From Thermoplasmata archaeon (GTDB taxonomy: Archaea > Thermoplasmatota > Thermoplasmata > Lutacidiplasmatales > UBA184): 64,000 nt of DNA. Below the pieces are notes generated by a model. That model did no database searches. It had not been told where the DNA came from and saw only the letters and a list, made by a program, of their open reading frames with translations. Made by a program: the position numbers and the translations under genes. This document shows, piece by piece, positions 1,050 through 44,509 of the stretch (position 1 is the stretch's first letter; every line of letters starts with the position of its first letter). The DNA lies in NCBI GenBank assembly GCA_035656275.1, contig DASRSW010000062.1, positions 986-64,985 on the forward strand, given 5' to 3'.

Positions 1050-2744
1050 TTACGAACCCACAGCCGATGCGGAATCGAGTCCGAGTGACCTAAGGATCTG
1101 CCCTTGGTTTCGAGCCACGAACGCGTTCCGGATCGTGTAGACTCTTTCAGTCAGCTGGTTCCGACGGAGTCTCAGGAAGTCCTCCGTCACGTCGGCCGGT
1201 CGTTGAGTCAACCCCTCCGCATCGGCTCCGGCTTCGTGAATGTCGGCGAGACCTTCAACGAGCCCGAGAAGCATCTCGTTGCTCTCCCTCGTTACCTCCC
1301 TGAGCGATTTCTCATAGGATTCGGCTCCGTCCAGGTCGGGGAAGAGGCGTTCGCTTACGGCTCGCTCTTCCCATACACTCTTGAGAAGAGTCGAAAGCGC
1401 CCCGTTCCCATGAATCCATCCCGCGAAATTGACGAGTGGGGCCAGTTCCTCATAGAAAGCGTTCAAACGAGGATCGAGAAAGTCATAGTCGGGATTACAG
1501 ACGTCCCCACGGAACCGCCCGGTGGACTCCAGGGTCTTCTTGATCGGAGTGCCGTCGTACGGAAGCATTCGACAGAAGATCGCCGGATTGGTGCCGTCGC
1601 CGACGATCTGACGAAGGAAGCGAACGTTGGAGCGGACCGAATCGAACGTGCTTGAGGGATCGAGGAGCATGAAGCCGAAATCAAAGCGGATTCCGAGGCT
1701 CTTGAGAATCGATACAGCCCGAAGATTCTCCTCCACTGTCGTCCCCTTGTTCAACGTCTCGAGGCCCTCCTCCGTACCGGACTCGAGACCCATGTAGACC
1801 ATGTAGAGTCCGGCCTCCTTGAGCCTCGCGAATAAGGTCGATTCCACCGAGTCCGCCCGACAATTGATCTTCCAGATGGTGCGCTCCGGCAGCTTCGACC
1901 CGTGAAGTTCGCCGAGCAACTCATCGGTCCAGCGGCGCCAGGCTGGACCGAAAAGCGGGAAGTCATCGTCCTGGAACAGGAAGATGCTTGCGTCTTTCCG
2001 TTCGCGAAGGTGCAACATTTCGCGGACGACCTCCGCCGGACGGCGGGTCCGTACGACTTTGCCTCGGACGGAACGATAGAAGGCGTGGATCGAACAGAAG
2101 GAGCAAGTCCGGGAGCACCCTCGGCTGGCAAGTATCGGCATGATCCTTCGGCCCAGAATCATGTCACCGTCGTACTCTCGGTCGGGGAATGGCAGGTCGT
2201 CAAGGTTCGTAATCAGAGGGCGCAGCTCGTTGCAGACCCCCCCAATATCGCCCCGATAAGCGATGCCCCGAAGGTCATGCCACTCTCGGTGGGTTGCGAC
2301 TCGATCGACCAGCTCAAGGAGTGTCTGTTCTCCCTCGAACCGGACGACGCTGTCCAGATCAGGGATCAGATCGAGGGTCCGCTCCCAACTGAGACTGGGA
2401 AAGTGGCCTCCGATCGTGAAGTGAGACGACACGCCATGGGACCGAAAATAGCGGGCAAGGTACGCGAATCGGTGGACATGGAACTGAAAAATCAGGGAGA
2501 ATCCGATGACGCTGGGCTGCTCTTGCTGCGCCCGGCCCAAAAGCGTCTCGGCCTCGTCCTCGAAGTCGCCCACGATTACCTTGTACCCCTCTTGGCGAAC
2601 CACAGCCGAAAGGTAACCGAGCCCCAAGTTCCCCTGTTGTTGGAACCCAATGAGCATGACCGGACGCGACAAGTCTCGAGCGAAAGTCGAATCAACTCTT
2701 CCTTCGAGCCTCGAGAGCTGAACGAAGGAGGGGCCGACCGTCAT
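1050..2744 (-). CDS. B12-binding-domain radical SAM protein (class B rSAM)
   Basis: N-terminal cobalamin-binding-like Rossmann segment (VMLIGFQQQGNLGLGYLSAVV..). Canonical CxxxCxxC motif (ASRGCSRTCSFCS). Long C-terminal extension. Confidence 0.8.
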   Translation of the reverse strand: MTVGPSFVQLSRLEGRVDSTFARDLSRPVMLIGFQQQGNLGLGYLSAVVRQEGYKVIVGDFEDEAETLLGRAQQEQPSVIGFSLIFQFHVHRFAYLARYFRSHGVSSHFTIGGHFPSLSWERTLDLIPDLDSVVRFEGEQTLLELVDRVATHREWHDLRGIAYRGDIGGVCNELRPLITNLDDLPFPDREYDGDMILGRRIMPILASRGCSRTCSFCSIHAFYRSVRGKVVRTRRPAEVVREMLHLRERKDASIFLFQDDDFPLFGPAWRRWTDELLGELHGSKLPERTIWKINCRADSVESTLFARLKEAGLYMVYMGLESGTEEGLETLNKGTTVEENLRAVSILKSLGIRFDFGFMLLDPSSTFDSVRSNVRFLRQIVGDGTNPAIFCRMLPYDGTPIKKTLESTGRFRGDVCNPDYDFLDPRLNAFYEELAPLVNFAGWIHGNGALSTLLKSVWEERAVSERLFPDLDGAESYEKSLREVTRESNEMLLGLVEGLADIHEAGADAEGLTQRPADVTEDFLRLRRNQLTERVYTIRNAFVARNQGQILRSLGLDSASAVGS

Positions 2745-2759
2745 GCTCGGGGGCCGGCG

Positions 2760-2990
2760 CTAACGAGTGAGCGTCTTGGCGATCCTCTCGTTAGCCGAGA
2801 TCTGGGCATCAATCATAGCTCTCTGGGCTGTGAGCATCGCTCGCTCCCGCTCGAGCACGATCCCGGCGAGCTGCACCTGGAGCTCCCTCGAGAGCAAGGA
2901 AAGAACCCAGGGAACGGGATCTCCGATCGGCCACCGCGGAAGGCGCAACACTTCTGCAAGCATCTCGGCCTGCCTGTCTTGCTCTGGCAT
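2760..2990 (-). CDS. Small helical hypothetical protein (76 aa) immediately upstream of and co-directional with the rSAM gene
   Basis: ORF ends 16 nt before the rSAM start. No Cys. Predicted all-helical. Confidence 0.35.
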   Translation of the reverse strand: MPEQDRQAEMLAEVLRLPRWPIGDPVPWVLSLLSRELQVQLAGIVLERERAMLTAQRAMIDAQISANERIAKTLTR

Positions 2991-3322
2991 GGCAGGGACA
3001 TTGATATCCCCGATTAAAATCTATCTGACGGCCCTAGACACTTACCTACTACACCGGACCTTGTCCCAGAGGCTGAAGGTCAACCCGATAGCGCCCGAAT
3101 GGGGGATTGGCGCTAGCCGCGCGATTGGTTCCCGGAGTAGTCTCGATGAGCGCAGCCCCCGCCCTGCGTGCGACCTCTCGGCGAGGCTGTAGGCCAAGTC
3201 TCTGTGCGAGCCAGTCTACCCCCGGCAGGATAGGTCGCCACAGTAGTTGACGGCAGAATAGCGATCGCCGCTTCTCTGGGACAGGGAGCTTCGACGCAGG
3301 CAAGAGAAAGCCGCCTGACAAG

Positions 3323-3346
3323 GTTCGAACTCGCCGACGAGCTCGG
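3323..3346 (-). other. tRNA 3'-end-like remnant (T-arm plus CCTTGTCAGG), putative att scar
   Basis: Minus-sense GCGAG-TTCGAAC-CTTGT-CAGGCGG. No matching 5' acceptor half found nearby. Confidence 0.35.
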
Positions 3347-3681
3347 AAAGCAATCTGCCCTTCGTCGAGGTCTTCCCCGGCGAGAGCCCCCGCGACCCGG
3401 AGCTGCGGTGGGGTCCGGTAGCGACGTGTCTCTGTGGAGGTCCCGCGCGAAAGGACTCACACGGCCGCGTCGCGGTGGGGCGCTCGTGAAGCTGAACGCT
3501 ACGCGGGCTGGGAGGGTCGATGGTTTCCCCATTGTCGGGAAACCGATTGGCCAACAGGGCAAGGATTGGAAGGTACTCAGCTCCGATTGAAGAAAACACG
3601 CGGCTGGTCAAGTCAGGGACCTCCCCCGCGGAGGATCGACTGAGGAGTCCAATGGCAGCCGATCTGACGTCGAGCGCGTAG

Positions 3682-4065
3682 CTACGCCTTCGAGAGCTCT
3701 TGTATCAGCCCTCCAAGGTCAGAGTTCAGGAGGCTGGTCCTTCGACTTAGGATCACTCGTGCGGCGCCGGTGCATGGATCGTCGGGGTCGAAGGGGGGGA
3801 TCTTGTAGAGCCTCGTCGACCTGTGGAACAGGTTGGCGTCTGCGACTTTCACAGATAGCGCCCGAGCTTGGTGGAGTGTCCTGGCAGAGATGACCGCCTC
3901 CACGAATCGCACGTCGGCTGGCCGGAGCCTCAGTCGGGCTGACTCGTGACCGAGCAAGGTCCGGTAATTCGACATGGCACTGCGGAACGTGGGGTCGATG
4001 CGTACTCCCTCTTTCCTAGCGCGCACCTGGACTAAGTCGATGACTCCTTTAGCTGAACGGGGCAT
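3682..4065 (-). CDS. Hypothetical protein (127 aa)
   Basis: ORF only. Confidence 0.3.
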   Translation of the reverse strand: MPRSAKGVIDLVQVRARKEGVRIDPTFRSAMSNYRTLLGHESARLRLRPADVRFVEAVISARTLHQARALSVKVADANLFHRSTRLYKIPPFDPDDPCTGAARVILSRRTSLLNSDLGGLIQELSKA

Positions 4066-4092
4066 ACGGGCCGTAATGTATTACGGGTTAAG

Positions 4093-4968
4093 GTGATTGT
4101 CTTGGATACCGAGGATTCACAAGCTAGCGAAACGCCTGCCCTGGACACGACCCCCCTGCCGGTAACTCCATCGAGAATGGGATCATCCGGCGGTCTCGGG
4201 CAAGGGCTGGTCGCTCAGCCGCCATCAGGAGCGACCATGGATGGCGCGTTATCTCAGAAGAGACGCACCGCGAACAAGGAAGGTAAGCCTTCGGAGCTGC
4301 AGACCAAGATCGCAGAGCTTCACGGGATTCTCGCGGTCGCGTCGGAGAATGGACTCTTCGCGAAGGGGGCGGCTGGAGAGCGTCACTTCGCGGCGTTAAA
4401 GACATCGCTCGAGCGAGCGTCGGTTCTCTCAGACGGTGAGGTTCCGAGTGAACACGAGGCATACTCCGCCCTCCAGGATTTCTACAAGGAACTGAGTGAA
4501 GCGCAGAATGAGGCGGGGTTTGGATGGCGGTTCGTCCAGCTGTACGCAGTCCCGGCGTGGATCTACCTGGTGCTTACTCCGTTGGCGGTCTACTTCATTC
4601 AGAACTGGTACCACCTCTTGCCAAGCTCGCCCATTCTCGAAGCATCAATATGGGGACTTCTGGGTGGCTGCCTGCAGGGTTTCTACTGGATCTGGCAACA
4701 AGTGAGCCGCGGACAATTCAGGGCACAGTGGGCCTTCTGGGTGCTCTCACTTCCCCCGGGCGGACTGATCTTCGGGGCGATTGCCTATCTGGTCGTCACC
4801 GGAGGATTGTTGTCGCTGTTCACCACGTCGCCGCCTGCCATCAACGAGACATCGGCCTTTCTTTTCTCCGCATTGGCCGGCTTCAGCTGGAAGGACTTTG
4901 CTCGCCTGCTGAAACAGTTCTGGGATCGACTGGGAACGGAACCTGCAAAAGGTCAAGCAACCAAGTGA
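4093..4968 (+). CDS. Hypothetical membrane protein (soluble N-terminal half, about 4 C-terminal TM helices)
   Basis: Hydrophobic segments from residue ~150 onward. AT-rich box about 20 nt upstream. Confidence 0.55.
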   Translation: MIVLDTEDSQASETPALDTTPLPVTPSRMGSSGGLGQGLVAQPPSGATMDGALSQKRRTANKEGKPSELQTKIAELHGILAVASENGLFAKGAAGERHFAALKTSLERASVLSDGEVPSEHEAYSALQDFYKELSEAQNEAGFGWRFVQLYAVPAWIYLVLTPLAVYFIQNWYHLLPSSPILEASIWGLLGGCLQGFYWIWQQVSRGQFRAQWAFWVLSLPPGGLIFGAIAYLVVTGGLLSLFTTSPPAINETSAFLFSALAGFSWKDFARLLKQFWDRLGTEPAKGQATK

Positions 4969-5046
4969 CTCGCTTAACGCGCGGGAGCCTCTGTTGACGA
5001 CGATCTCCTAGGCACAGAACCAGGGTGGGAACCCGGTTGGTCGAGT

Positions 5047-5150
5047 CCTGACAAGGATTCGAACCGCCCAGCGTTTCAAAAGCTCTGGATTCGAGGGTAG
5101 GCATGTTATGGGGAGTTTCGGGGATTCGAGAGTCCATCCCCGGGTGGTCG
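5047..5150 (-). repeat. Array of degenerate tRNA T-arm/3'-end-like remnants (GGTTCGAATCC-CTTGTCAGG plus two further CTCGAATCC-like copies)
   Basis: The minus-sense sequence contains CTCGAATCCCCG, CCTCGAATCCAGAG and GGTTCGAATCCTTGTCAGG within about 100 nt. The T-stem does not pair canonically and no 5' half was found. I interpret this as stacked att remnants. Confidence 0.4.
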
Positions 5151-5415
5151 ACCACCTTTGTCCTCGGGTGTTGGGCGAGATTTCGTACTCATCCTGCACG
5201 GCCCGCGTCTCGCCCGGGATTCTCGGATGCTCAGATTCAACGTTCGTTCTGCGGGGGATCGGCTGGACCCCAGTTGGCGAGTTGTGTTCCACCGAGGAGC
5301 GAATTCCACTTGCGCCCCTCATCAGGTCCTTCCGAAGGCACCTGCATCTTCCTGATTCGTCTGCTCGGTACGGCAAGGAAGGATTGCAACCGAACGACCT
5401 CTCGGCCCGGTATGA

Positions 5416-7107
5416 CTACGGGAAGAGGCCGGTGTCGGGAAGCGGATCAACTTGAATGGGTATGGCTCCGCCATAGGTCACCCGTGGAGTCGGATTGTCT
5501 CTGGACCCCGAATCAGGCTTGGAAACTGTCGAGTCGTTCGCCTTAAACACCCTATGGTAACGCAGCATCGCCTCATTCGCAGACTGAGCTCTACCGAGGT
5601 CCGTATACACCTCGATTAGCGCGGGCAATAGGACGAAGCCTTCCAGCGCCATGTAGTTCGCCTGAAGAATCCTGTCAGCTTCCTCCAAGTATGGTAGGGC
5701 TTGTGTGGGCATGCCAGCCACACGGTAAAGATTGCCGAGAAGGCTAGATAGTCGAGCCCTGATCGCCGGAGGTAGTACTGTTCGATATCGTTCTAGTAGG
5801 TCTTCGATAACCAGGATGCCCTCTGCGGCGCCATCCGGCTCTTCAAGGATGCAGTTGGCGTACAGCAGTTTGCATTGGGCTTCTAGCATCGGACTCGGAT
5901 TGTTCAGGAGGTCCAACAATTGTACTGCTGTTGCGCTGTACAGGAACATCCTGGCTCGCATCTGTTGCACACGGCGAGTTACATCGAAGGGGGTTGAAGT
6001 CTCTGTGGAGCCAAGTTGCACCTGTCGGATTGTCGCGATTCTTCGTCCCACGGCAACCGCCGCAATGTAGTTTGTAATCAGCCTGTCCTCGACAGATTCT
6101 GCTGTCAAACTCATGCGGCTAAGATCAGCGGAGGGGATTTCTACCATGGACTTGCCGGAGTCGAAGGTACCCCACCAGGCCGCCTCTGTTAGGTTGAGGC
6201 GTATCACCGTCTGGCAGAACTGACGGGCGTTCGATAGGTGATACTGCAGCTTGTTGAGCTTTAGTCGGGGACTGGCTTGATGGACCGCTTTAGGACGGAC
6301 GAAGTCCTCCGTGATGGAGAGTCTTGCCAGAAGTTTGGCCAGGAGCGCTCTCGTATCGCACTTGACAGCGGTTCCGTGTAGTGATCCCTTCAAGTCGCTC
6401 CTGAGAACTGCGTTCAGGTCCTCGACCTGGAACCCCGGCCCTGCCTCCTGGTGATTGACCAATATCAGTCTGCTATCAGTCGGACCGATGTCTCTGAGAG
6501 TTGGGTTAATGTCGAAGTAGTCAGAAAAGCTGTAACCAAGTACTAGCACGAGCCCATGCCCATCTTTTGCTAGGAGCTCTTCTAGACTTGAGCGGAGCTC
6601 CGGCCTGGCCTGATTACGAACAAGCTCCTCTGACGTGGCCTTAACGGAAGCGGGGTCAGAGGCTCGCCCGTGAAGATGGTCAACGTCCAGCCTGAACTCC
6701 TCAGTGGGGTCCAATCGAAACCGGCCCGACCGGCTAAGAGAATTGGCCGCTTTCTCCACAAGTTCATCAAAGTTTGTCGTCACTACCCGTCTGGTGCAGC
6801 CCGCCGACATAATCGCGGCGATGGCGTAGTGCTCGAACGTTGGCTCCGCCGATGAAAATACATCCAGCAGTTCGCCGTAGAAAGAACCACCAAGTGATCC
6901 GATTATCACCTCAAGCGGGAGCTGTCTCACTCGAGGAGGAATCGGGTCGAGCCACAGCGCCGACAAAATTGAATTCGAGATGCTGAGAGCACCAGGGATT
7001 CCCGATGGTATCGAGACTCCCGCACCTAACCATAATGCTAGCTCGCCGCGTCTCGCGGAGCCAGCCAGAATCTCGATGATACCGTCAACAGAGTCCGGAG
7101 TCGTCAT
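5416..7107 (-). CDS. SIR2-like (SIR2_2 / DHS-like NAD-binding) domain protein fused to a C-terminal TPR-like helical-repeat domain
   Basis: N-terminal motifs LWLGAGVSIPSGIP, VVTTNFDELVEKA, VDHLHG and LVLGYSFSDYFD match the defence-type SIR2_2 signature (GAGxS / TTNYD / LHG / GYSxxD). The C-terminal ~300 aa is a helical repeat. Confidence 0.75.
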   Translation of the reverse strand: MTTPDSVDGIIEILAGSARRGELALWLGAGVSIPSGIPGALSISNSILSALWLDPIPPRVRQLPLEVIIGSLGGSFYGELLDVFSSAEPTFEHYAIAAIMSAGCTRRVVTTNFDELVEKAANSLSRSGRFRLDPTEEFRLDVDHLHGRASDPASVKATSEELVRNQARPELRSSLEELLAKDGHGLVLVLGYSFSDYFDINPTLRDIGPTDSRLILVNHQEAGPGFQVEDLNAVLRSDLKGSLHGTAVKCDTRALLAKLLARLSITEDFVRPKAVHQASPRLKLNKLQYHLSNARQFCQTVIRLNLTEAAWWGTFDSGKSMVEIPSADLSRMSLTAESVEDRLITNYIAAVAVGRRIATIRQVQLGSTETSTPFDVTRRVQQMRARMFLYSATAVQLLDLLNNPSPMLEAQCKLLYANCILEEPDGAAEGILVIEDLLERYRTVLPPAIRARLSSLLGNLYRVAGMPTQALPYLEEADRILQANYMALEGFVLLPALIEVYTDLGRAQSANEAMLRYHRVFKANDSTVSKPDSGSRDNPTPRVTYGGAIPIQVDPLPDTGLFP

Positions 7108-7455
7108 GCTCCTGCCATTGAATTAGAGCGCAAACACTGTTTGAATCTTGGTTGCCCAGGCCCCCACGAGCCGCTTCTGTAATAGCACTCGGCCATTCCA
7201 ACGCCGCCCTCTCAAGCACTCGCGAGCACGATTCGACCGGCGGAAGGTGTTCCCGCCCAGACCCGAGGATCCCGGTGCTTTACCGAGACTAGTGCATCAA
7301 GCCGTCCCAAGCCTGGATGAGGAACCGAACCAGCTCCCTTCCCTGGGCCAGACCCTTGTCCGGTCGCCAACTTCGATGCCGAGTGCGAGTTCTCGTGATA
7401 TAACAGTCCTGGGGGGTTGAGATAGACCGACTTGAGGCAATCCGCCTAGCGCTTC

Positions 7456-8268
7456 CTACAACGTGCAGGTGACGGACTTCACATGGTGGAGGCCCACGAG
7501 GTCAGTGTACTCAACCGTAATGTCCAGCTGCTTCGGATCCTTGGTGAAATGGGACGAGTCGAGCTCAAATTCCGCCTTTTCACCTGCAGGAAGAACGGAA
7601 ACGTATGGCCTCCGATTAGCATCCCATTGACCGGTCGGACTTGAGAACCTCAGGGCGATCGTTACCTCCTCGGCGGGACCAAGGCCAAGGTTTCGGACCC
7701 CGACCCAGCGATGGTCCGCACGTATCAGATGCCCTTCGAATCGATAGTAGGGATCCATTGCAGGAGCGATCTTTGCGCGCTCAGTGCTGTGGCGCTCAGA
7801 CTCTGCCATGCGTTTCGCTTCCCCAGCTTCTGCAGTGAGCGAAACTATGCGGTCTTCCGCAGCGTGAAGGCGGTCCTCGAGCCGTCTTCTGTCTTCCGCG
7901 GCCTCTCGCCGCGTGTTCGTTACCTGCTCGCGAAGCTCCTTCTCGACGGCTTCGGCGGTCAGCTTTGCCTCCGAGGCTTCGCGTTGAACTCGCGAAATTT
8001 CCTGATCCTTCAGAGAAGAGTCTCTGCGCGAGGCATCCAACTCGTGTCGGAGGCGCGCGCTCCGCGAAATCGAAGCAACGAGGTAGAATCCGCCCAAGCC
8101 CAGAAGAGCGAGGAGCCCTCCGAAGGCGGATGCTTCGGATGGGTCTGCCCCAAAACGGCTGAGACTGTACGCAATAGCCGCAGCGATCCCTAGGATCGTG
8201 ATTACCGCTGCGAGGTACCCTAGAGGCCGGTCGGATTCTGAGAGCAGGCCCTGGGCTTCTCGCATCAC
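7456..8268 (-). CDS. Membrane-anchored coiled-coil protein (2 N-terminal TM helices, a long charged coiled coil, a C-terminal beta-rich domain)
   Basis: Two hydrophobic helices at residues ~18-65, then an E/R/A-rich heptad region. Confidence 0.55.
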   Translation of the reverse strand: MMREAQGLLSESDRPLGYLAAVITILGIAAAIAYSLSRFGADPSEASAFGGLLALLGLGGFYLVASISRSARLRHELDASRRDSSLKDQEISRVQREASEAKLTAEAVEKELREQVTNTRREAAEDRRRLEDRLHAAEDRIVSLTAEAGEAKRMAESERHSTERAKIAPAMDPYYRFEGHLIRADHRWVGVRNLGLGPAEEVTIALRFSSPTGQWDANRRPYVSVLPAGEKAEFELDSSHFTKDPKQLDITVEYTDLVGLHHVKSVTCTL

Positions 8269-8523
8269 GGCAGACCGTACCGCGAGTGGTGAGATAGAGA
8301 TATTGGGTTCCTATCAAGGAACGGTATCGTAGTGTCCGCGAAGTGTACTGGGTTTCTGCACGCGGCGGAAACCTGAGTGATGTCCTCGGCTGAGCTCGGT
8401 GGCCAACGACAAAAGAACTCTCCTGATGGTCCATGCACCTACACTCCTGCTGCCAATCTTGGGGGCGCTGAGAACCGCACTCCGTGACCGGTATCTTTGA
8501 AAGTTGAACAGGCCCGTTCAGAA

Positions 8524-8546
8524 CCCTCACAAGGATTCGAACCTGG
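8524..8546 (-). other. tRNA 3'-end-like remnant (CCAGG-TTCGAAT-CCTTG-TGAGGGT)
   Basis: Near-canonical T-arm (one mismatch). No 5' acceptor partner found within 150 nt. Confidence 0.35.
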
Positions 8547-8872
8547 AATAGAACTCGGTCCTCGAGGCCTCCCCAATCGTTCAAGTCTGGGCCGGCCTAT
8601 TCCTTGGGCTGGCACTCCTCGTCACTCGAACCTACGCCTTGCCGGTTGGTGCTGCTGGTAGATCTTCGGAAATCCCTGTCGCGAAATCCTGACTACCGAC
8701 CGTGTCGCAGCCACCTGGCTGAAGCACGTCTCCTAACCTGTCCGACCGCATCCTGGGCGCCTGGGGTGAAATGCAGGCGAGTCCCCTCGCAGATCCATCT
8801 CCGTCACGGTAAGCGAAGATGGGTCTCCAGGTTGCCGCAGCTTTGTTAGGCACAAACGCGAAATGCCTCTGA

Positions 8873-9127
8873 GTGAGTCCTCCATCGATGGCCGAGAAGG
8901 CATTCCGGGTGATCTACACCACACAGTGGCTCGAAGACGGGCGGCCCAAAGTCTACAGTGAGATTGTCTATGGGTTGGAGCCGGTGAGCACGGGTGAAAC
9001 ATTCAAGAAGCGGAAGATGGACGAGCACAAGGGGCTGGTAGTCCGGTTGGTCGCGGTCAACGAGATCCATTTCTCGCCCAAGGGCACACCAAGTGAACCT
9101 TCCATCAGGCTAGTCGTCGGAGACTGA
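8873..9127 (+). CDS. Small hypothetical protein (84 aa)
   Basis: ORF only. Protein-like composition. Confidence 0.25.
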   Translation: MSPPSMAEKAFRVIYTTQWLEDGRPKVYSEIVYGLEPVSTGETFKKRKMDEHKGLVVRLVAVNEIHFSPKGTPSEPSIRLVVGD

Positions 9128-9321
9128 AGCTGTCTCTTCTTCCGCCCCGACGCACGCATCTGCCCCCAGCTCTCGGGCAGCCCCTGTACCACGAACCGGC
9201 GCTCTCGAACAGCTCCGTCAATCTCCTGAAGTTTCCCTGAGCAAGAGTTCCGGCTTTCCGCCCTCGTGACATGGGTTGCCACGCGAGTGGTTCGAGGGCG
9301 GACCACAGCCCAGTTCGGCGG

Positions 9322-10359
9322 TCAGTCGGAGGTAGGAGCTGGATGAAAGCCTCGTAGTACGCTCACCATTCTTTCGATAGCCTCAATCGAGCGATAGACG
9401 GCGGGAATCTCGAATCTCCTCTGACTCTTGTGGATGATGTTATTCCTGATGTTGTAGACTTTCTCGACATCCGCAATCAGCTGGCTTACATCAGACCGCG
9501 CTTCAAGTACTTCGATAATGAACCTGGTGAGTCCGATTAGTGGAATGTTCCTGATGATCTCCTCGGCGTGGGTTCGCCTTTGCTCCTCCACTCCGCTCTC
9601 GGTTCCGAATCTAGACGCGAGATAGGCTTCGATCTCGGCTTCTAGCGCTATCACCAGCTCGATGTAGACCAGGTCGTATTCCCTAGTCACGTAGTGAATT
9701 CTGCATCTGGCGAGGTAGTTTCGTCTAAGCTGCGTGCGTCCGTCGTAGTCGATTGTCAGGATTCTGAATCTCTCAAGCTCTGCCCGACCAGCCGGCCAGT
9801 CAGCGGTGTAGCACAAGTCTAGGTAGACGATTGCTTCAGGGGGAGTTGTCTCGAGAATGAAGCGAATCTTGCGTAACGTCGGTAATGGGCCTAGGTCCGC
9901 ACTCTTCACGCGATAGGAGGTCTCCCAGTACCCTTCGGAGGCGGTATCGTCGATGGCGGCCGCGAGCCTTTCTTCCAGATTCGTTGTATCAAGGCGACCC
10001 GCCGAGGCCAATCCCAATTCGTAGTCGGAGTAGTCGAGCACTGCCAGTTCGACGGACTCGACCGGGATCCCCGCCGCTTCCGAAATCCACTTGTCAAGAT
10101 TCTGACGGGTCAGCCCGAGACCGTCTAGGCGGACAATGGCGGTACCCACCGTAGTCTCGTACCAACAGTCGAGTCCGTCATGCTCGCGAGACGGAGCGAA
10201 CGCCGCAGAATCGGGATTCGGCCGGCGAGAATCTAAGTCTATTTTCCGATCTGCAGGTCGGAATAGACAGCTCAGGGCGTGGTCGTCAGTCTCCGGGACC
10301 GCGTTTCGCCATTTCAACGCCGCTGAATCGCCTATCCAGAGAGTCGACCAATCCGCCAT
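9322..10359 (-). CDS. Hypothetical protein with C-terminal HEPN-like module (RNxxxH motif IRNNIIH)
   Basis: Helical C-terminal ~110 aa carries R-N-x3-H about 45 residues from the C-terminus. The N-terminal ~230 aa is an unknown domain. Confidence 0.6.
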   Translation of the reverse strand: MADWSTLWIGDSAALKWRNAVPETDDHALSCLFRPADRKIDLDSRRPNPDSAAFAPSREHDGLDCWYETTVGTAIVRLDGLGLTRQNLDKWISEAAGIPVESVELAVLDYSDYELGLASAGRLDTTNLEERLAAAIDDTASEGYWETSYRVKSADLGPLPTLRKIRFILETTPPEAIVYLDLCYTADWPAGRAELERFRILTIDYDGRTQLRRNYLARCRIHYVTREYDLVYIELVIALEAEIEAYLASRFGTESGVEEQRRTHAEEIIRNIPLIGLTRFIIEVLEARSDVSQLIADVEKVYNIRNNIIHKSQRRFEIPAVYRSIEAIERMVSVLRGFHPAPTSD

Positions 10360-10617
10360 CGCCGGGACAAAGGGCGCCGTCCCAAAGCGATTGTCTTGTA
10401 CCAGGTCCGGTGGGGCCTATTGACACGCGACTCGACCTACCTCGCCCGGCTCCGTGCGTCAATGCGCTGTTGCGAGGTCCCCTCTCAGACCCGTTTTGAG
10501 AAAGAGTGGCCCATCACATGCCGTCTCCGCCCGGGCTTCTCGCACCTCGGCCGTTACGGGCTCGACACGGTGTGCGGGCCGAGCGCACCATCCGAAAGGT
10601 GGCTTCAGGCGGCGCGA

Positions 10618-11583
10618 TCAAATCGTCTCTTCCCTCCCACCCGAAAGCTCCCGGGCACGGCCTACCAAGAGCAATCGCACTAGCGCCCGGAGGTACCCAT
10701 ATCCGTTATTCAACTCGTCTGGGCTCTTCGCGTCCCACTCGTCATGCACGACCCTGTTTCGGGTCTCCCCCAGGGCCTCCAACTTTTGGACCTCGACATC
10801 ATTCAAGCCGAGCCTCCGGGCGGCTTCCATCCGCTGGGCCTCGTGCTCGTTTGTAAGGCAGACTACGGCCTTCCACAAGAGGACCATCGCGAGCGCCCCC
10901 GCGTATCCAAAGCCCTTCTGGACCTGAACCATGCTCTCGCGCTCCTCTCGTGCCGCGTTGATTCCGGCCTCATACACCCAAATCGCCCGCTTGTAGAATA
11001 GCAGTGCAGAACTGAGGGCGCTGTCCGCCGCTGTGGCCCACTCTGCTCCTTCGCGAAAGTCAGAGGCGAGCCGCGTCGTGTTCCAGCCGGCAAACGAGTG
11101 AGTCATCATCTCGGAAGTTCCGACCGTTCCGCCGGCCTCAGTCCAAGCACGTTGATACTTCGCCTTGAAAACCACGTTCGTCCCCAGCCCAGCGGTAACC
11201 TCCAGGTCCCGAACAGCTTCAGTGGTGAGGTCAATCGCGCCCCAGAGATCGTTCCCCATAACAGTGAGGGACACAACCAAGATGTTGTCCTTGAGAGAGT
11301 ACTGGTAACCCTTGAGGGGGAACGTGATGTCAATCGCCTCCTCTGGCGACCTGCTCCGCGGCGTAGTTTCGCCGTCAGGCTGTAGCAGGGTGGTTCCATC
11401 CGGAAGTCCGAACTGCGTCCGAGGTTCGAGTTCGAACTCGACGAATGCTCGCGTGGGGACTGGAGGTGGCCCGAACCACTTCCTACGCGCTTCCTCATCC
11501 ATGCGACCCAACAGGTCCTCCTTCTCAAGAAAGCTCCCAGAGCTCGACGGTCTGATCGGTCGGGTCCTCCCCCTGGGCCGCAA
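10618..11583 (-). CDS. Hypothetical protein with C-terminal HEPN-like module (RNxxxH motif TRNRVVH). Divergent tandem neighbour of 9322-10359.
   Basis: Same layout (unknown N-terminal domain plus helical C-terminus with R-N-x3-H about 50 residues from the end). The N-terminus is unrelated to its neighbour. Confidence 0.6.
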   Translation of the reverse strand: MRPRGRTRPIRPSSSGSFLEKEDLLGRMDEEARRKWFGPPPVPTRAFVEFELEPRTQFGLPDGTTLLQPDGETTPRSRSPEEAIDITFPLKGYQYSLKDNILVVSLTVMGNDLWGAIDLTTEAVRDLEVTAGLGTNVVFKAKYQRAWTEAGGTVGTSEMMTHSFAGWNTTRLASDFREGAEWATAADSALSSALLFYKRAIWVYEAGINAAREERESMVQVQKGFGYAGALAMVLLWKAVVCLTNEHEAQRMEAARRLGLNDVEVQKLEALGETRNRVVHDEWDAKSPDELNNGYGYLRALVRLLLVGRARELSGGREETI

Positions 11584-12883
11584 TGGCGTGGATTCTCGGT
11601 CCTACCCCTCGGGCCGAATCCCTAACCAGGAATCGCAGATCTGTTCGCATCTGGAAACTGGTGCCCCGCTTGCGGACCGTTCATTCCTTTCAGCCTCGGA
11701 GCCAATCGGAAGTGAACCACATGGACGCGACGTTCAACTTTCTGGACGCCCCCCTGTCACCGTAACAGCGAGGGCGGAGAGCCTGAGGAAGGACTCCTGA
11801 CTGGCCCCGGCTCCGAGACCCATCTCCTCTCGCCGGCAGGCCTGCAACCCGCCACCATGTTCGTCTTCAGACCCTCCCTTACCCGATCATGGGAAGGGTT
11901 TCACGGTCCAGGAATCGGCACAAGAGACCGACTTTGTCATGAGGTCCAGCCGCGATGCTTGCATTAGACGGATCACCCTCGCCGAGCAAGGATCCCAGCA
12001 GCCGTGGGGTCCGTTATGTGGGCTAAACCGACTCTGCGGCCAACGCCCTGTCTATGAATACAAGAGCTTGGGCCGACGTCGATCTAAACTCTCTTCGAGC
12101 CACCTTCTGAAGCTTCGTCAGAAGCCCCTTCGGCAGGTAGACGGCTAGCGCAGCTCGGCCCTCCGCTTGCGGCTTGCGTGAACGCGACATTCCCCGGTTC
12201 CCTCAATGGCCAGCAGCCAATCCGTCGAGAGGACACCCGGCGCCCCCTCGACTCGGGACGTTCGGTGGACAACAGCGGCGCGTATATATTCGTTAGCCGA
12301 GGCTCGCTCTCGGGTCTCATTGGCCAGCCGTTCCGGCTCTGACTCCTGGGACAGGAGTCGCACCTTGAACTCGCACCGCCGTCACCATGCTGATAGGTGT
12401 CGGCGAGAGTAGAAAGCAAGAGCCTAACTAGTCCTATCGACGCTGTACGTCACAGCTCGAGGTTTCGGGCAGAAGATTTACGAGGGGGCCGATCTGCCCG
12501 ATGGCGGCTGCCTCCGATCGCACTCGAGATGGTAAAAGTCTTGGCGCCATCAGCTAGCAAGCTTGGCACCTAGCGTTTTCCCGGAACCGGGCTGCCATGT
12601 CGAGGGAGCAAGCCAATCGATGTCGTTAGGGCGTTACAGACGACATTTGTGACTGTTCACGATGGATCATTGGCCCGATCCGGCAACTCTCCGCGAGCTG
12701 GCCACTAGGCATCCTATTCTTCTAGGACGCCCTCTCGCCTCTGGCGGTTACTAATCCTTCCCGGCATCCATTTGGCCAACCGGCAAACCGGGTGTGCAAG
12801 GAGCCCCTTGGGTGACCTGCTGCTAGAGTACCTCCGCGCACGACACTATACAACATGTTGCAGCACTAAGACGCTAGGGTACG

Positions 12884-12890
12884 TTATATT
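12884..12890 (+). promoter_or_regulatory. Archaeal TATA-like box (TTATATT) about 35 nt upstream of the probable ATG at 12924
   Basis: AT-rich heptamer in otherwise GC-rich DNA at the expected distance. Confidence 0.35.
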
Positions 12891-12895
12891 CTAGC

Positions 12896-13720
12896 GTGCC
12901 ACTACGGCGCACAGGTGGGTCTATGCGACGAAATCCTCAAGAAGAAACTGCCGTCCACGTGAAAAGACGAATCCCAAGGGGAATGATCGGCCTCGGGGCC
13001 GTTGCCCTGGCGCTGCTAGTAGCAGTGTCGCCGTTGGCGTCGGCCAACTGGGTCAATGGGACTTGGGTGAGAATAGCGACAGCCTCTGTGGCGGGCCCGA
13101 CCGCAGGGAGTGGGGTCAACACCCCGACTCCCGGGCAGCCGACAGCCGTGGGCCCAATTCCCGTCAGGGTAACTTTCGGCTTTACAAGCACTTCGGGCCC
13201 GGCGATTGGGTGGGCGAACTACCATCAGCAGGCCACGGCCTGGGCCCTCCCCACTTTCGCTGCGTGGAAGGGGGTCGGGGCTAGCTACAATGTCAGCGTT
13301 CTCTTCGGTTACCAGATCAGGGCCAACGACGTCGTGGCAAGCGTGAACTGCGTGAACGGCGGGACAGCGAACGCGACCGCCATCATCATCGTCCAGCTTG
13401 CCATCTACGACGTGACCACCGGTACGTATGCAGCGGCGCTGGGCCCCCCAGGCGGGATACCTATCTGGCTTCCGTACCAGGTCAGCTGTACCACCGGCGG
13501 GTCCGCTACGGCTGGCAACCCGGCGATGAGTCTTCCTGCGCTGGGCAACCTGACGGGTCCAATCGGCATCCACTTGACCGCCGGAAATGTCTACCAGGTC
13601 GAGGGACTGATTGCGGCGTACGGGAGCGCTTACACCACGGCGGTGGGAGCCACGGCTTCGGCGACCGTCAACTTCCCCGCGGGCGATTACGTCGAGATCG
13701 CGAGCTCAAACGCGTACTGA
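12896..13720 (+). CDS. Secreted/surface glycoprotein paralog B (probable true start ATG 12924; the GTG at 12896 is a finder artefact)
   Basis: Signal-peptide-like MIGLGAVALALLVAVSPLASA. Sequons NGT, NVS, NAT, NLT. Paralogous to 133-966. Confidence 0.65.
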   Translation: MPLRRTGGSMRRNPQEETAVHVKRRIPRGMIGLGAVALALLVAVSPLASANWVNGTWVRIATASVAGPTAGSGVNTPTPGQPTAVGPIPVRVTFGFTSTSGPAIGWANYHQQATAWALPTFAAWKGVGASYNVSVLFGYQIRANDVVASVNCVNGGTANATAIIIVQLAIYDVTTGTYAAALGPPGGIPIWLPYQVSCTTGGSATAGNPAMSLPALGNLTGPIGIHLTAGNVYQVEGLIAAYGSAYTTAVGATASATVNFPAGDYVEIASSNAY

Positions 13721-21680: not shown

Positions 21681-22140
21681 AGCCCACAGTCAATCCGCCT
21701 GGGCGACCTTCATCCGGGACCTCGGGGCACCGCCCCCGAAGGTCCAGATCAGCCGCGGGGAGTTGTATTCGACCTGGACGGAACGCTGGTCCCGAGTCAC
21801 CACGACTTTAGGAAGATGCAGGACGCGATCATCTCTATCGCTGTTCGTACTGGCGCCCGGGAGAGGACATTGGTCGCCACCGAAAGTGTCGGAACGAGTC
21901 AGATTCTGAGCGACGCACGGAGAGAGTTGATCCGCGCAGAAGTCTCGACGAAAGCCCTTGCACGATTTCACGAGGAGGTGGCATTCGTTGTAGACGCAAT
22001 AGAGATGACCGCGGGCAATCGGACGACGCTCCGACGCGGGGCGAAGGAACTCCTCGAGTACTTGAAAGGGCAGGGCTACCGGCTCGGGCTCTTCACCCGC
22101 GCATCGGGCCCATTCTGCGTTGAAATCCTGACAAGGATTC
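21663..22140 (+). pseudogene. Truncated HAD hydrolase gene (motifs I and II present, motifs III/IV missing). The reading frame runs into the tRNA-like remnant at 22127.
   Basis: GVVFDLDGTLV and GYRLGLFTRAS are present. No K/DD motifs follow before the att-like sequence. Confidence 0.45.
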
Positions 22141-22147
22141 GAATCCA
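22127..22147 (-). other. tRNA 3'-end-like remnant (CCTGACAAGGATTCGAATCC), shares a 17-18 nt core with 5047-5066
   Basis: Exact match of CCTGACAAGGATTCGAA to 5047-5063. The T-arm is non-canonical (palindromic GGATTCGAATCC). Confidence 0.35.
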
Positions 22148-37571: not shown

Positions 37572-37700
37572 GGGGCTCCTATCCTCGCAGGCGCCTTCGT
37601 TGCGGAACTTGTGTTCAACGCCGGCACACTGGCCATATAAGTGTAAGGTGGTGAAGGGGCGACTTCAGCGGGTGTAGCTCTCCGCAGTGGTCATATCTTG

Positions 37701-37728
37701 CGCAGGGATTCGAACCCTGATTCGACTC
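37701..37728 (-). other. tRNA 3'-end-like remnant (CAGGG-TTCGAAT-CCCTG with a partially duplicated GTCGAATC just upstream)
   Basis: Perfect 5-bp T-stem in minus sense. No 5' acceptor partner. Confidence 0.4.
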
Positions 37729-38671: not shown

Positions 38672-40303
38672 GTGGGGACAGGGTTTACCGAAACGGCACA
38701 CATGGGCGATCGAATCGTCATGCTCTCAGGTGCAATTGGTTCGGGTAAGTCCCTCCTCGGGAGGTCCCTAGCCGCTAGCGAGGGGGCCCGAGTATTCCGT
38801 ACGCGGGATGTGCTGAGACGACTCGTCCCTTCGGAGAGCGCGGATGACAGAAAGGCGCTCCAATCGGTTGGAGACCGACTGGACTTCGAGACAGAGCACC
38901 TGTGGGTCCTGCAGGAGTTCCATCAGTGGCTCGCTGGCCAAAGCGCTTCCAGAATGTCCGTTGTGGACTCGGTCCGTACCCTCGGCCAGGTAATGGCCTT
39001 TCGAGAGGAGTACGGGGCACGGGTGACCCGTGTCCACCTTTCGGCCCCTGTCGTCGAACTCGAGAGCAGGTACGCCCAACGCGCCCAGCCCAGTTCGGGC
39101 CGCGCGTACTCCTTTGCCGAGGCGCGGGCGAACGCCACCGAGCAGCAGATTGAGGCACTTGGGAACGTCGCAGACCTGGTCGTCGACACAAAGCGCTGCA
39201 CGCCGGCAGATGTCCTGATTCGTACACAGAGTCACTTCGGCGTGCGCCCCTCCGCGGGGCGTGGCTACGTTGACGTAGTGATCGGGGGACAGTATGGCAG
39301 CGAAGGGAAAGGTCAGATAGTCGATTTCATTTCGGAAGAGTACGACCTCCTAGTTCGGGTCGGCGGACCCAACGCCGGTCACTCGGTCTATCGAACACCG
39401 AGGCCCTACGTTCATCACCACCTTCCCTCAGGCACGCTCCGCGGATCGGCACGCCTTCTCATCGGACCTGGGGCCGTTCTGGGTGTTCAGACGCTCCTCA
39501 AGGAGATACGCGAGTGCGGGGTTGAGCAATCCAGGTTGACCATCGACGGAGGCGCTATGACGATCTCCGCGGACGACCTCACAGCCGAAAAGGGGCTCGT
39601 CGCGTCTATCGGGTCAACTGGTCAAGGTGTCGGGGCCGCGACTTCACGCCGAATCATGGGTCGTGGAACCGGGATCAAGCTGGCACGCGATGTGCCCGAC
39701 TTGGCCCAGTTCATCGGGAATGCGCTCGACGTGCTTCGGGAGACTTTCGCCTCTGGCGGGCGCGTCCTCCTCGAGGGTACCCAAGGGACCGGTTTGAGCC
39801 TATTTCATGGAAGCTACCCACATGTAACCTCGAGGGACACCACGGTCATGGGTTGCCTCTCCGAGGCCGGAATCCCACCGTCCCGAGTTCGGAGGATCGT
39901 AATGGTCTGCAGAACCTATCCAATTCGGGTTGAGAGCCCGGAGGCCGGCAGTTCAGGCCCCCTGCGTGAAATCTCTTACCAGGAGCTTGCCTCGCGCTCG
40001 CATATCGACGAAGCTGAGCTACTTGCAACCGAAAAGACTTCAACGACCCGGCGACAGCGACGCCTTGGGGAGTTTGAGTGGGACAATCTCCAACGAGCCG
40101 CGTTCTTGAACGCCCCGACCGACCTAGCGATAACGTTCGCCGACTACATCGACAAAGGCAATCGCGAAGCACACCGGTTCGAGCAGCTTTCTGAAGAGAC
40201 TATCAACTTCATCCAAGAGGTCGAGAGGGTTACTGGCGTCCCGGCCTCTCTGGTCGCGACTGGGTTCGGCGAGCGCAGTGTCATCGACCGACGGGCCTGG
40301 TAG
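38672..40303 (+). CDS. Fusion protein: N-terminal P-loop kinase-like domain plus C-terminal adenylosuccinate synthetase (PurA)-family domain with altered catalytic residues
   Basis: Walker A [14 protein letters not shown] in the first ~180 aa. The C-terminal ~360 aa aligns by eye to PurA: [19 protein letters not shown] vs [30 protein letters not shown] vs [23 protein letters not shown] vs [37 protein letters not shown] vs [39 protein letters not shown] vs TTGRRRRTGWLD. Asp13 becomes Ser and Lys18 becomes Gln. Confidence 0.8.
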   Translation: [543 protein letters not shown]

Positions 40304-42908: not shown

Positions 42909-44393
42909 TCAGTGCAGTCGGCCGTCGTTGTCCGTCCGAGGGATCGGAGTGGGCCTTAGGATTGCACGGTTGGGTCCCAGTTGGGCCACGAACTCATAAC
43001 CCGACCCGATGAAGCGCTCCGCCTCGGCGAGGGAGACCACTCGCTGAGTCGAGGGAGGGCTGGGGGTGGCAGCCGGGGTCTGGAAAGGTAGTTCCTCGTT
43101 CGTGGCGGTGGTGCGTTGACCAGACCGCTTCCCGGGCTCTCCTCGGCTCTTCTCCTGCTCCGCCAGCATCTTCGCGAGGAACTCGATCGCCTCGGGCTCG
43201 CGGAGTAGCGCCGCCAAGCGCTCCTCCGCGCTCCGAGCTTCCTCGATTTGCTTCACGGCTGGAAGGGAGAGGGGGCCTCCGCAGGTCATGCAATACACTG
43301 CGCCGGGCGGGTTGACCGTCTTACAACGACCGCATCTGGACGGAGCCCGGCTAGGCTCCGGATTCTCCCTCGGGTCTGGCACTTTCACCCCGTAGCGTGC
43401 ATTCAGTGCACCGATCACATCCTTCCCACTCAAGTGGACGTAGTGCCGGGCGACGTCGCTCCCGGGAACCCACCCTGCTACCTTCTCGAGAATGGAGGTC
43501 GAGATTGCTGGGTCCTTAGCGAGTATAGTCAGCCGGGATCGGCGCAGCGCGTAGGCCGTCACCGGCTTCTTTATGCCCGCCCGCAGTGCGGCGGTCTCGA
43601 GCGCCTTGTACATCGCGCGATACGTGGCCGGCCTTCCCGACCGTTCCCCGCCCAAGTCGACCCAGAGAGGGGAGGAGGTGTCTTCCCGAGCCGGATGAGC
43701 GTTCAGCCAGGCCAGCAGCGCCGGGACCGCATCCTCGTAAACCGGGGCCGGCTCCGGGGCGGACCCTTTCTCCCGACTGACTCTGAGCTCGATGTATCCC
43801 TCGTCGTGAGGAACTACATCGCAAATCCGAAGTCGGTAGATCTCGCCAGGTCGGCAGCCGGAATTGAATAGTGTCCAGATCCAGGCCTTGTCACGGAAGT
43901 TCAGCGCCGCGTCAGCGATCCGAGCGACGTCCTCACGGGAGAGCATGTCCGATGGACCAGCCACGGGTTTCCATTTCTCCAGGCGGATTCGGAGCCAAGA
44001 AGGGTACTCCCTTCCCTGGCGGGCGAACCACCATCGCCAGAACGTTCCCAAGCAGTTCGTACCGGTCGCCCGTGTAGCTCGGGCGTAGACGCCCGGAGGA
44101 AAGGCCGCTGTGAATGCAGCCGGGGTCTCCTTGTCGGGGGAGAGGAAACGTGAGCCCAGCCGGGACGCTGCCAAAGGCAGCCAGGTTAGGAATGTCCGGA
44201 TCCGGACCTCGCTGACCTCGGGCCGGCGGGCCGAGACAAAAGCGAGAATCGCGTCCCGTTCAGATCGCTCGAGGTCGAGGACCGTGCCGACGGGTCCCCC
44301 CCCACCCAACTGAGCGAGACGTTTCTCGACGTAGCCAGACACGAGGTGGACGTCCCCGAACGGATCTTCGCGAAGTCGCTTCCGGCCCGCCAT
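42909..44393 (-). CDS. Tyrosine recombinase/integrase with C-terminal zinc-ribbon (CGRC...CMTCGG) extension
   Basis: Catalytic-domain residues ALRRSRLTILAK, ARHYVHLSG. Located 43 nt from the tRNA-Thr 3' end. Confidence 0.85.
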   Translation of the reverse strand: MAGRKRLREDPFGDVHLVSGYVEKRLAQLGGGGPVGTVLDLERSERDAILAFVSARRPEVSEVRIRTFLTWLPLAASRLGSRFLSPDKETPAAFTAAFPPGVYARATRATGTNCLGTFWRWWFARQGREYPSWLRIRLEKWKPVAGPSDMLSREDVARIADAALNFRDKAWIWTLFNSGCRPGEIYRLRICDVVPHDEGYIELRVSREKGSAPEPAPVYEDAVPALLAWLNAHPAREDTSSPLWVDLGGERSGRPATYRAMYKALETAALRAGIKKPVTAYALRRSRLTILAKDPAISTSILEKVAGWVPGSDVARHYVHLSGKDVIGALNARYGVKVPDPRENPEPSRAPSRCGRCKTVNPPGAVYCMTCGGPLSLPAVKQIEEARSAEERLAALLREPEAIEFLAKMLAEQEKSRGEPGKRSGQRTTATNEELPFQTPAATPSPPSTQRVVSLAEAERFIGSGYEFVAQLGPNRAILRPTPIPRTDNDGRLH

Positions 44394-44436: not shown

Positions 44437-44509
44437 AGCCGCGGGAGGGGTTTGAACCCTCGACCTGCTCCTTACCAAGGAGCCGCTCTGCCAGCTGAGC
44501 CACCGCGGC
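44437..44509 (-). tRNA. tRNA-Thr (anticodon GGU)
   Basis: Hand-folded cloverleaf. Acceptor GCCGCGG/CCGCGGC. D-stem GCTC/GAGC. Anticodon stem GCTCC/GGAGC with loop TTGGTAA. T-stem GAGGG/CCCTC with loop TTCAAAC. 73 nt, no encoded CCA. Confidence 0.85.

Follow-up and report, generated by a model that had tools for sequence, protein, structure and literature searches.

Among the NAD+-hydrolysing defence enzymes built on a SIR2 domain, DSR2 of Bacillus subtilis (PDB 8wy8, 8y13 and others) is a single chain in which an N-terminal NADase is followed by a helical repeat sensor, with no nucleoside triphosphatase (NTPase). In the account given in PMC11850899, it is activated when the repeat domain binds a phage tail-tube protein. 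DSR2 is a large protein of about 1000 residues, with a MID and a HEAT-like C-terminal domain, and it forms tetramers. Other members of the class work with partners: ThsA of Thoeris (PDB 7uxt, 8bto, 6lhx) has a C-terminal SLOG/STALD domain and needs the TIR protein ThsB, while KomC of Kongming (PDB 8zsf, 9xvc) is a stand-alone SIR2 domain of 264 residues without TPR, complexed with KomB ('KomBC complex' in the PDB title). In Avs5/SIR2-STAND (PDB 9nc9) and in the eukaryotic SIRim-NACHT-TPR proteins, a central STAND NTPase drives oligomerisation. Here, we describe a protein of another layout, a SIR2 domain followed by TPR-like repeats, encoded at positions 5416..7107 (minus strand) of a 64,000-nucleotide stretch of contig DASRSW010000062.1 from a Thermoplasmata archaeon (assembly GCA_035656275.1); the whole of this stretch is referred to as the window. 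By analogy with the systems above, we consider it rather likely, with a probability of about 60%, that this SIR2-TPR protein is a single-chain sensor-effector, whose TPR domain would sense a viral cue and whose SIR2 domain would deplete NAD+.

SIR2_2 domain and TPR-like repeats

The gene runs from an ATG start to a stop codon at 5416-5418 and encodes 563 residues, 100% identical to the NCBI gene model 'SIR2 family protein' of a Thermoplasmata archaeon metagenome-assembled genome (MAG). Residues 1-262 (6322..7107, minus strand) make up a SIR2 Rossmann domain of the SIR2_2/SIRim type. An earlier note, drawn up from the DNA alone, had recognised in this part the diagnostic motifs GAGxS, TTNxD, LHG and GYSxxD, and all four are found in the translation: GAGVS at 28-32 (G28-A-G-x-S32), TTNFD at 110-114 (T110-T-N112-F-D114), LHG at 145-147 (with H146-G147) and GYSFSD at 191-196 (G191-Y-S-F-S-D196). 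The profile search agrees with the motifs: over residues 107-207 the protein reaches 38.9 bits with Pfam SIR2_2 (PF13289), for a gathering cut-off of 24.5. In contrast to the canonical sirtuin deacylases (CobB/Sir2), it stays under the curated cut-offs of the canonical Pfam SIR2 (18 bits against 24) and NCBIfam CobB (22.4 bits against 320) models, and its weak CobB/sirtuin profile matches are confined to the NAD-binding half. Residues 1-262 contain two cysteines, C104 and C250, and no CxxC pairs, hence no Zn-ribbon; the lack of the Zn-binding Cys4 module of canonical sirtuins is typical of SIR2_2 proteins (PMC12700824). Altogether, the sequence places the protein in Pfam SIR2_2, the class of defence-type sirtuins that also goes by the name 'SIRim'. 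The catalytic motif set of this class is intact and fused to TPR repeats.

We obtained an AlphaFold2 model of the protein from a 73-sequence alignment (mean pLDDT 85, pTM 0.83). It shows a Rossmann-type domain with a small helical subdomain (1-262), a helix stack at 280-525 and a disordered C-terminal tail (526-563). The stack, a TPR-like helical repeat domain (5533..6270, minus strand), ends in six helices arranged as pairs of 15-19 residues; being confidently modelled, it confirms the order proposed in the note, a SIR2_2 domain and then TPR-like repeats. The tail (5419..5532, minus strand) is predicted with pLDDT <50 and is weakly conserved among the four closest homologues. The linker between the SIR2 domain (to 262) and the repeats (from 280) is 18 residues long, and neither the model nor Pfam reveals a P-loop domain. 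Searched against TPR structures, the family profile gives E-values down to 1e-106.

A profile of the N-terminal domain, made from 28 genomic relatives, was then compared with solved structures. Its best match is the KomC NADase, with an E-value of 3.6e-19 over about 200 residues, followed by ThsA (1e-15 to 5e-12), SIR2-APAZ (2e-12) and DSR2 (2.4e-11), against 1e-9 or worse for canonical sirtuins. All four motifs, GAGxS, TTN(F/Y)D, HG and GYSxSD, can be aligned with KomC, its catalytic His146 among the aligned residues: the HG histidine of the family falls on this very residue, the one altered in the deposited KomC(H146N) mutant. For the model, the top Foldseek matches are ThsA and DSR2. The closest characterised relatives of the SIR2 domain are thus NAD+-hydrolysing defence enzymes (KomC, ThsA, SIR2-APAZ, DSR2) and not deacylases.

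Each of these systems nonetheless differs from SIR2-TPR beyond the shared domain. The likeness is closest with DSR2, whose chains are among the top Foldseek matches and which has the same overall plan: a single chain, an N-terminal SIR2 NADase, a helical repeat sensor and no NTPase. However, DSR2 is almost twice as long and carries MID and HEAT-like domains instead of TPR; the two overlap in the SIR2 domain only, with a TM-score of 0.17-0.21 when normalised to full-length DSR2. PADLOC gives no Dsr2 match for the 563-residue protein, and a marginal, partial Dsr1 match (E 0.004). SIR2-TPR resembles DSR2 in its proposed logic but is not a DSR2 member. Unlike KomC, it does not end with the SIR2 domain, and the window shows no genes for Kom partners. 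Unlike ThsA, its C-terminal half consists of TPR; the ThsA matches in PADLOC are weak (E 9e-4) and cover the SIR2 part only. It also lacks the STAND NTPase of Avs5 and the SIRim-NACHT-TPR proteins.

Partner domains were sought with Pfam, PADLOC and NCBIfam in the neighbouring open reading frames (ORFs) at 3682-4968 and 7456-13720. As the note had stated, none of these encodes an NTPase, pAgo, HerA or TIR domain. This sets the locus apart from Thoeris, with its TIR gene, and equally from SIR2-HerA (Nezha) and SIR2-APAZ/pAgo (SPARSA), as the flanking ORFs scanned contain neither a HerA nor a short pAgo gene; the Aga_SIR2 matches of PADLOC extend over some 50-100 residues of the SIR2 core only.

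A large family with a divergent archaeal branch

The note had regarded a stand-alone SIR2-TPR protein of this size as an unusual architecture, a view that did not survive a wider search. We searched 1.84 billion cluster representatives exhaustively with HMMER and obtained 934 relatives of the SIR2 domain at E<=1e-3, of which 402 are at E<=1e-10; the majority of the 934 are 500-700 residues long, with the SIR2 domain at the N-terminus. In the 73 nearest relatives, SIR2_2 is found in 73/73, TPR_12 in 61/73 (best E 6e-82) and a MalT-type TPR in 45/73. Seventeen residues are invariant in this set, among them G28, G30, S32, T111, N112, D114, H146, G147, G191, Y192, D196 and D199. In the alignments A5 and A6, G28-A-G-V-S32, N112, D114 and H146-G147 do not vary. 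The median ORF length over 80 genomic loci of relatives is 606 residues, so that 563 is an ordinary length. A SIR2_2 domain with TPR repeats at 500-700 residues is therefore a common architecture and the mark of a large existing family: hundreds of clusters of uncharacterised SIR2_2-TPR proteins, annotated 'SIR2 family protein', share the domain order, size range and invariant residues of the protein studied here.

Members are spread over both prokaryotic domains. When one genome per GTDB species was scanned with the pattern GYS[CF]SDxFD, 111 relatives were found to carry it. Their bacterial sources are Bacteroidota, Acidobacteriota, Proteobacteria (Alphaproteobacteria), Chloroflexota, Nitrospirota and others; the archaeal ones fall in five lineages, Thermoplasmata, Bathyarchaeia, Altiarchaeales, Halobacteria and Methanobacteriaceae. 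The distribution across phyla is patchy. In viral contigs, we found only distant, partial relatives of the SIR2 domain.

Within this family, the 563-residue protein belongs to a small divergent branch. Its similarity to the wider family is detectable over residues 1 to ~265 only, and in the branch that it forms with three or four close relatives the repeats fall below significance against the Pfam TPR models. The close relatives are few: P0002 and P0003, which match it over the full length with 39% identity, a fragment (P0011) and the orthologue L014.

Fusions of this kind have been noted before. In the FAM118 tree, some SIR2_2 members carry the label of an additional domain, TPR being an example (PMC12700824), and TPR-like and nucleotide-binding-domain-plus-TPR fusions of SIRim have been described in eukaryotic members (bioRxiv 10.1101/2024.09.18.613514). 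No paper using the term 'SIR2-TPR' was found in the literature searched. The family is thus large and widespread, but without a named, validated system; what is new here is a divergent archaeal member of a kind already known, the defence-type SIR2_2 sirtuins to which a repeat sensor is fused.

The closest orthologue, L014 from the Thermoplasmata MAG Bin_56, has 71-72% nucleotide identity to the gene. It is split, at the equivalent of window positions 6494/6498, by a 2.76 kb insertion (L014 1402-4162) that codes for DDE_Tnp_1 and ISAzo13 transposases and has CTTAG at both junctions; this copy is a pseudogene. On either side of it, the DNA bears no similarity to that of the window. An orthologue split by an insertion sequence (IS) and set in unrelated surroundings argues for a horizontally moving, dispensable gene rather than a housekeeping one.

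One could still imagine a housekeeping sirtuin-like regulator conserved in the lineage, and the weak CobB/sirtuin matches over the NAD-binding half would be compatible with it. This reading is barely credible: among the 1.84 billion cluster representatives only four proteins are found at E<=1e-30, the nearest orthologue is IS-interrupted, the GC content of the gene is low and its scores lie far under the curated CobB cut-offs. The missing Zn-ribbon cysteines and the patchy, non-syntenic distribution likewise speak against a housekeeping deacetylase, in support of the note's reading.

To see which genes accompany the family, we clustered all genes within 4 kb of 83 relatives, and no universal partner gene emerged from this neighbour clustering. 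The most recurrent neighbour is a family of hybrid histidine kinases, found at 14 loci, which is probably due to lineage. It is followed by TIR-NB-ARC-TPR or TPR proteins (7), Eco57I-type restriction-modification enzymes (6), Dcm methylases (6), integrases (5), an OLD-family nuclease (3) and WYL-WCX regulators (2).

A candidate single-chain sensor-effector

A role for SIR2-TPR as an NAD+-depleting defence effector is plausible. The steps proposed here are drawn by analogy from DSR2, from the TPR sensors of Avs/STAND proteins and from the peptide-binding TPRs of Rap and PlcR. In the resting state, the NADase would be held inactive. The TPR array would bind a protein or peptide that appears in the course of infection by a virus or another mobile element, and this binding would cause a conformational change, oligomerisation or both, by which NAD+ hydrolysis is switched on. 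The ensuing depletion of NAD+ would arrest the infected cell, through abortive infection or dormancy.

It is tempting to extend the proposal to the family as a whole. NTPase-less SIR2-TPR proteins, including the divergent Thermoplasmata branch, could form a widespread single-chain pattern-recognition immune system in bacteria and archaea, in which the TPR domain would sense a viral protein directly and set off NAD+ depletion, with no partner involved. We hold this broader proposal tentatively, at somewhat less than even odds.

Several observations weigh against the sensor-effector reading. On the sensor side, the C-terminal half of the protein, taken by itself, matches TPR_14 with an E-value of only 0.055, marginal for what is a degenerate sequence. 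For the relatives, an apparent defence-island context was noted at some of the loci only. PADLOC, to which the note had referred the protein, does yield partial matches to the SIR2 core, but it has no full-length model, and the matches of the protein and its relatives alike are restricted to that core: the PDC-S65 match covers residues 88-120 only (33 residues, for profiles of 592 or 503 positions), and the relatives match PDC-S65 profile positions ~120-220 only. In the literature searched, enzymatic or phenotypic data were not found for any member of the family.

The remaining point concerns chemistry. The SIR2 fold supports NAD+ hydrolysis, ADP-ribosyltransferase and deacylase chemistry; enzymes with this fold are also ADP-ribosyltransferases or deacylases, and NAD+ hydrolysis is what we infer here from sequence. 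The SIR2 domain might accordingly be an NAD-dependent protein-modifying enzyme of either kind, to which the TPRs, being generic protein-binding scaffolds, would recruit the substrate, in conflict systems or in regulation. The Asn and His motifs do not speak against it, as they are common to deacylases in our alignment with Sir2Af2 and SIRT3. However, the N-terminal profile is far better for NADases (KomC, 3.6e-19) than for deacylases (1e-9), the CobB score is 22 bits against 320, the two lone cysteines of residues 1-262 leave no Zn-ribbon, and a macro-domain partner of the SirTM type was not found. We regard protein modification as unlikely and keep NAD+ depletion under the control of the TPR domain as the preferred reading.

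The surrounding region and the place of the locus

The second ORF described in the note is found as stated: a co-directional gene at 7456..8268 (minus strand), encoding 270 residues. The protein is 100% identical to an NCBI gene model, 'hypothetical protein', of a Thermoplasmata archaeon MAG. It has the predicted make-up, with two transmembrane helices, a helix of about 100 residues and a C-terminal Ig-like beta-sandwich, in line with the membrane coiled-coil protein with a C-terminal beta domain that the note had seen. Its family comprises five homologues at ~50% identity; none was found in viral contigs. At the homologous loci (L004/L005, L008/L009 and L006/L007), the neighbours include GmrSD, PDDEXK, a 1077-residue DEAD-like protein, an integrase, IS110, NucS and a methyltransferase-Mrr fusion. 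The 270-residue family may thus be an uncharacterised defence or mobile-element gene by itself. In L004, L006 and L007, a conserved protein of ~190-234 residues precedes the homologue; it is absent from the window.

The note had suggested that this neighbour could be the sensor or partner of SIR2-TPR. In such a two-gene module, a membrane-acting protein, perhaps lineage-specific, would complete the system. The two genes are indeed adjacent and co-directional, and the 270-residue family is placed among defence and mobile genes. Yet by tblastn a 270-residue homologue occurs in 0/83 loci with a SIR2-TPR relative, and a SIR2-TPR relative in 0/10 loci with a 270-residue homologue. The two genes are separated by 348 nucleotides without an ORF. 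The loci closest to ours by their SIR2-TPR gene (L001-L003) have other neighbours, with an unrelated upstream gene in L002, just as the flanks of L014 bear no resemblance to the window. This absence of co-occurrence largely refutes the two-gene module, which we consider very improbable; the 270-residue protein is not a conserved partner.

Two loci superficially recall the pair. In L003, the convergent neighbour of a distant SIR2-TPR relative (3146-3826, minus strand) has two transmembrane helices, a coiled coil and a beta domain, a layout like that of the 270-residue protein. In L006, a SIR2_2 gene of 564 residues (2703-4397, minus strand) lies 3.6 kb from a 270-residue homologue. Both point to a possible link, though with proteins that are not homologous. 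The L003 convergent gene and the L002 upstream gene were compared with the 270-residue protein by BLASTP and hhalign, with no homology detected (hhalign probability of 3% for the L003 neighbour), and the BLASTP similarity of the L006 protein to SIR2-TPR is limited to one short motif. We read the L003 and L006 cases as separate residents of defence and mobile neighbourhoods, by coincidence or co-residence.

Two adjacent genes close by, at 9322-10359 and 10618-11583 (both minus strand), code for HEPN-like proteins with weak HEPN_LA2681 and CARF-HEPN hits; towards the C-terminus, each has an Rx4H motif, RNNIIH in one and RNRVVH in the other. From these motifs, they are possible HEPN RNases beside the SIR2 locus. 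They are mutually non-homologous by BLASTP and absent from all loci of SIR2-TPR relatives. Most likely, the 270-residue protein and these two HEPN-like genes reside independently in the variable region that they share with SIR2-TPR.

The note had further placed the SIR2-TPR and 270-residue genes between two remnants of tRNA 3' ends, as a discrete inserted cassette. A 19-nucleotide direct repeat does flank them: the left copy, CCTGACAAGGATTCGAACC, lies at 5047..5065 (plus strand, T-loop-like on the minus strand) and the right one, 18/19 identical to it, at 8525..8543 (plus strand). The motif can be written CCTSACAAGGATTCGAAYC, and the reverse complement of the repeat includes GGTTCGAATCC, which resembles a tRNA T-loop. 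The 15-nucleotide core, allowing <=2 mismatches, has 4 occurrences in place of the 0.13 expected; all copies are intergenic and in one orientation, and the similarity stops about where the 3' end of a tRNA would fall. The repeat with its T-loop-like core is real.

Its identification as a tRNA remnant is another matter. T-stem pairing is poor in the 5051 copy, and over 4700-9300 neither ARAGORN nor Infernal, even at E<=10, detects a tRNA or a fragment of one at the repeats. The sole tRNA of the window by ARAGORN and Rfam is a tRNA-Thr at 44437-44509, the T-arm of which differs from the repeat. A third copy, again 18/19, is found in the same orientation between genes at 22127-22145, and a perfect T-arm-like hairpin, CAGGG TTCGAAT CCCTG, lies, likewise oriented, in intergenic DNA at about 37695-37725 (near 37702, minus strand). 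With these additional copies, the repeat pair does not uniquely bracket the gene pair.

A cassette of ~3.5 kb (5047-8543), inserted site-specifically in a tRNA-derived attachment (att) site, would be compatible with the sensor-effector reading and would account for a direct repeat that brackets precisely the two genes, with its T-loop-like core, its excess over expectation and its constant intergenic orientation. The segment, however, contains no integrase and has no full tRNA at either end. The repeat motif does not occur in 1.11 Mb of DNA from related loci, including those of the L014 orthologue and of the 270-residue homologues, and the two genes are distributed separately. An empty site was not recovered: a search of metagenomes with the left-flank gene gave one homologue, L119, with 62% identity followed by unrelated, non-syntenic DNA. 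Besides, a genuine junction of a tRNA with an integrase is located at 42.9-44.5 kb, ~36 kb away. The cassette between tRNA remnants is weakly supported at best, and we judge it quite unlikely. The repeats may instead represent fossil att sites, or else an intergenic repeat specific to this genome.

At that distant junction, a gene for a tyrosine integrase (42909-44393, minus strand) lies right against the 3' end of the tRNA-Thr(GGT) (44437-44509, minus strand), exactly at a jump in GC content: the profile is at 0.55-0.64 over 1 to ~43 kb and at ~0.70 from 44 kb to 64 kb. The arrangement suggests the junction of a large integrated element or island. As the window contains no further copy (att repeat) of the tRNA-Thr 3' end, the far end of the element would lie outside it or be degraded. 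SIR2-TPR sits ~36 kb inside the low-GC stretch, which is rich in ORFs without database matches and may represent one or several integrated elements; the gene has a GC content of 0.554, compared with 0.629 over the whole window and ~0.70 in the right-hand part of the window.

Two other genes of the window may be mentioned. Near the integrase, in the low-GC region, an ORF of 543 residues (38672-40303, plus strand) encodes an unusual fusion: a P-loop kinase-like domain (AAA_33) at the N-terminus is joined to an adenylosuccinate synthetase domain. An ORF at 1050-2744 (minus strand), of nearly the same length as SIR2-TPR (564 residues), is a B12-binding radical SAM protein, unrelated to it. Altogether, the locus is best understood as one accessory gene among several, independent of each other, that populate a large variable region of low GC content.

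If the sensor-effector reading of SIR2-TPR holds, the family would add to the SIR2 defence repertoire a minimal member made of two domains, a sensor and an NADase, and would show that TPR sensing could control a SIR2 effector without a STAND NTPase. It would constitute a compact counterpart of DSR2 and SIR2-STAND (Avs5), and would rank with the very small number of effectors of this type that are linked to viruses of archaea. Its archaeal members would then offer a handle on antiviral NAD+ depletion in Thermoplasmata, a group little explored experimentally.

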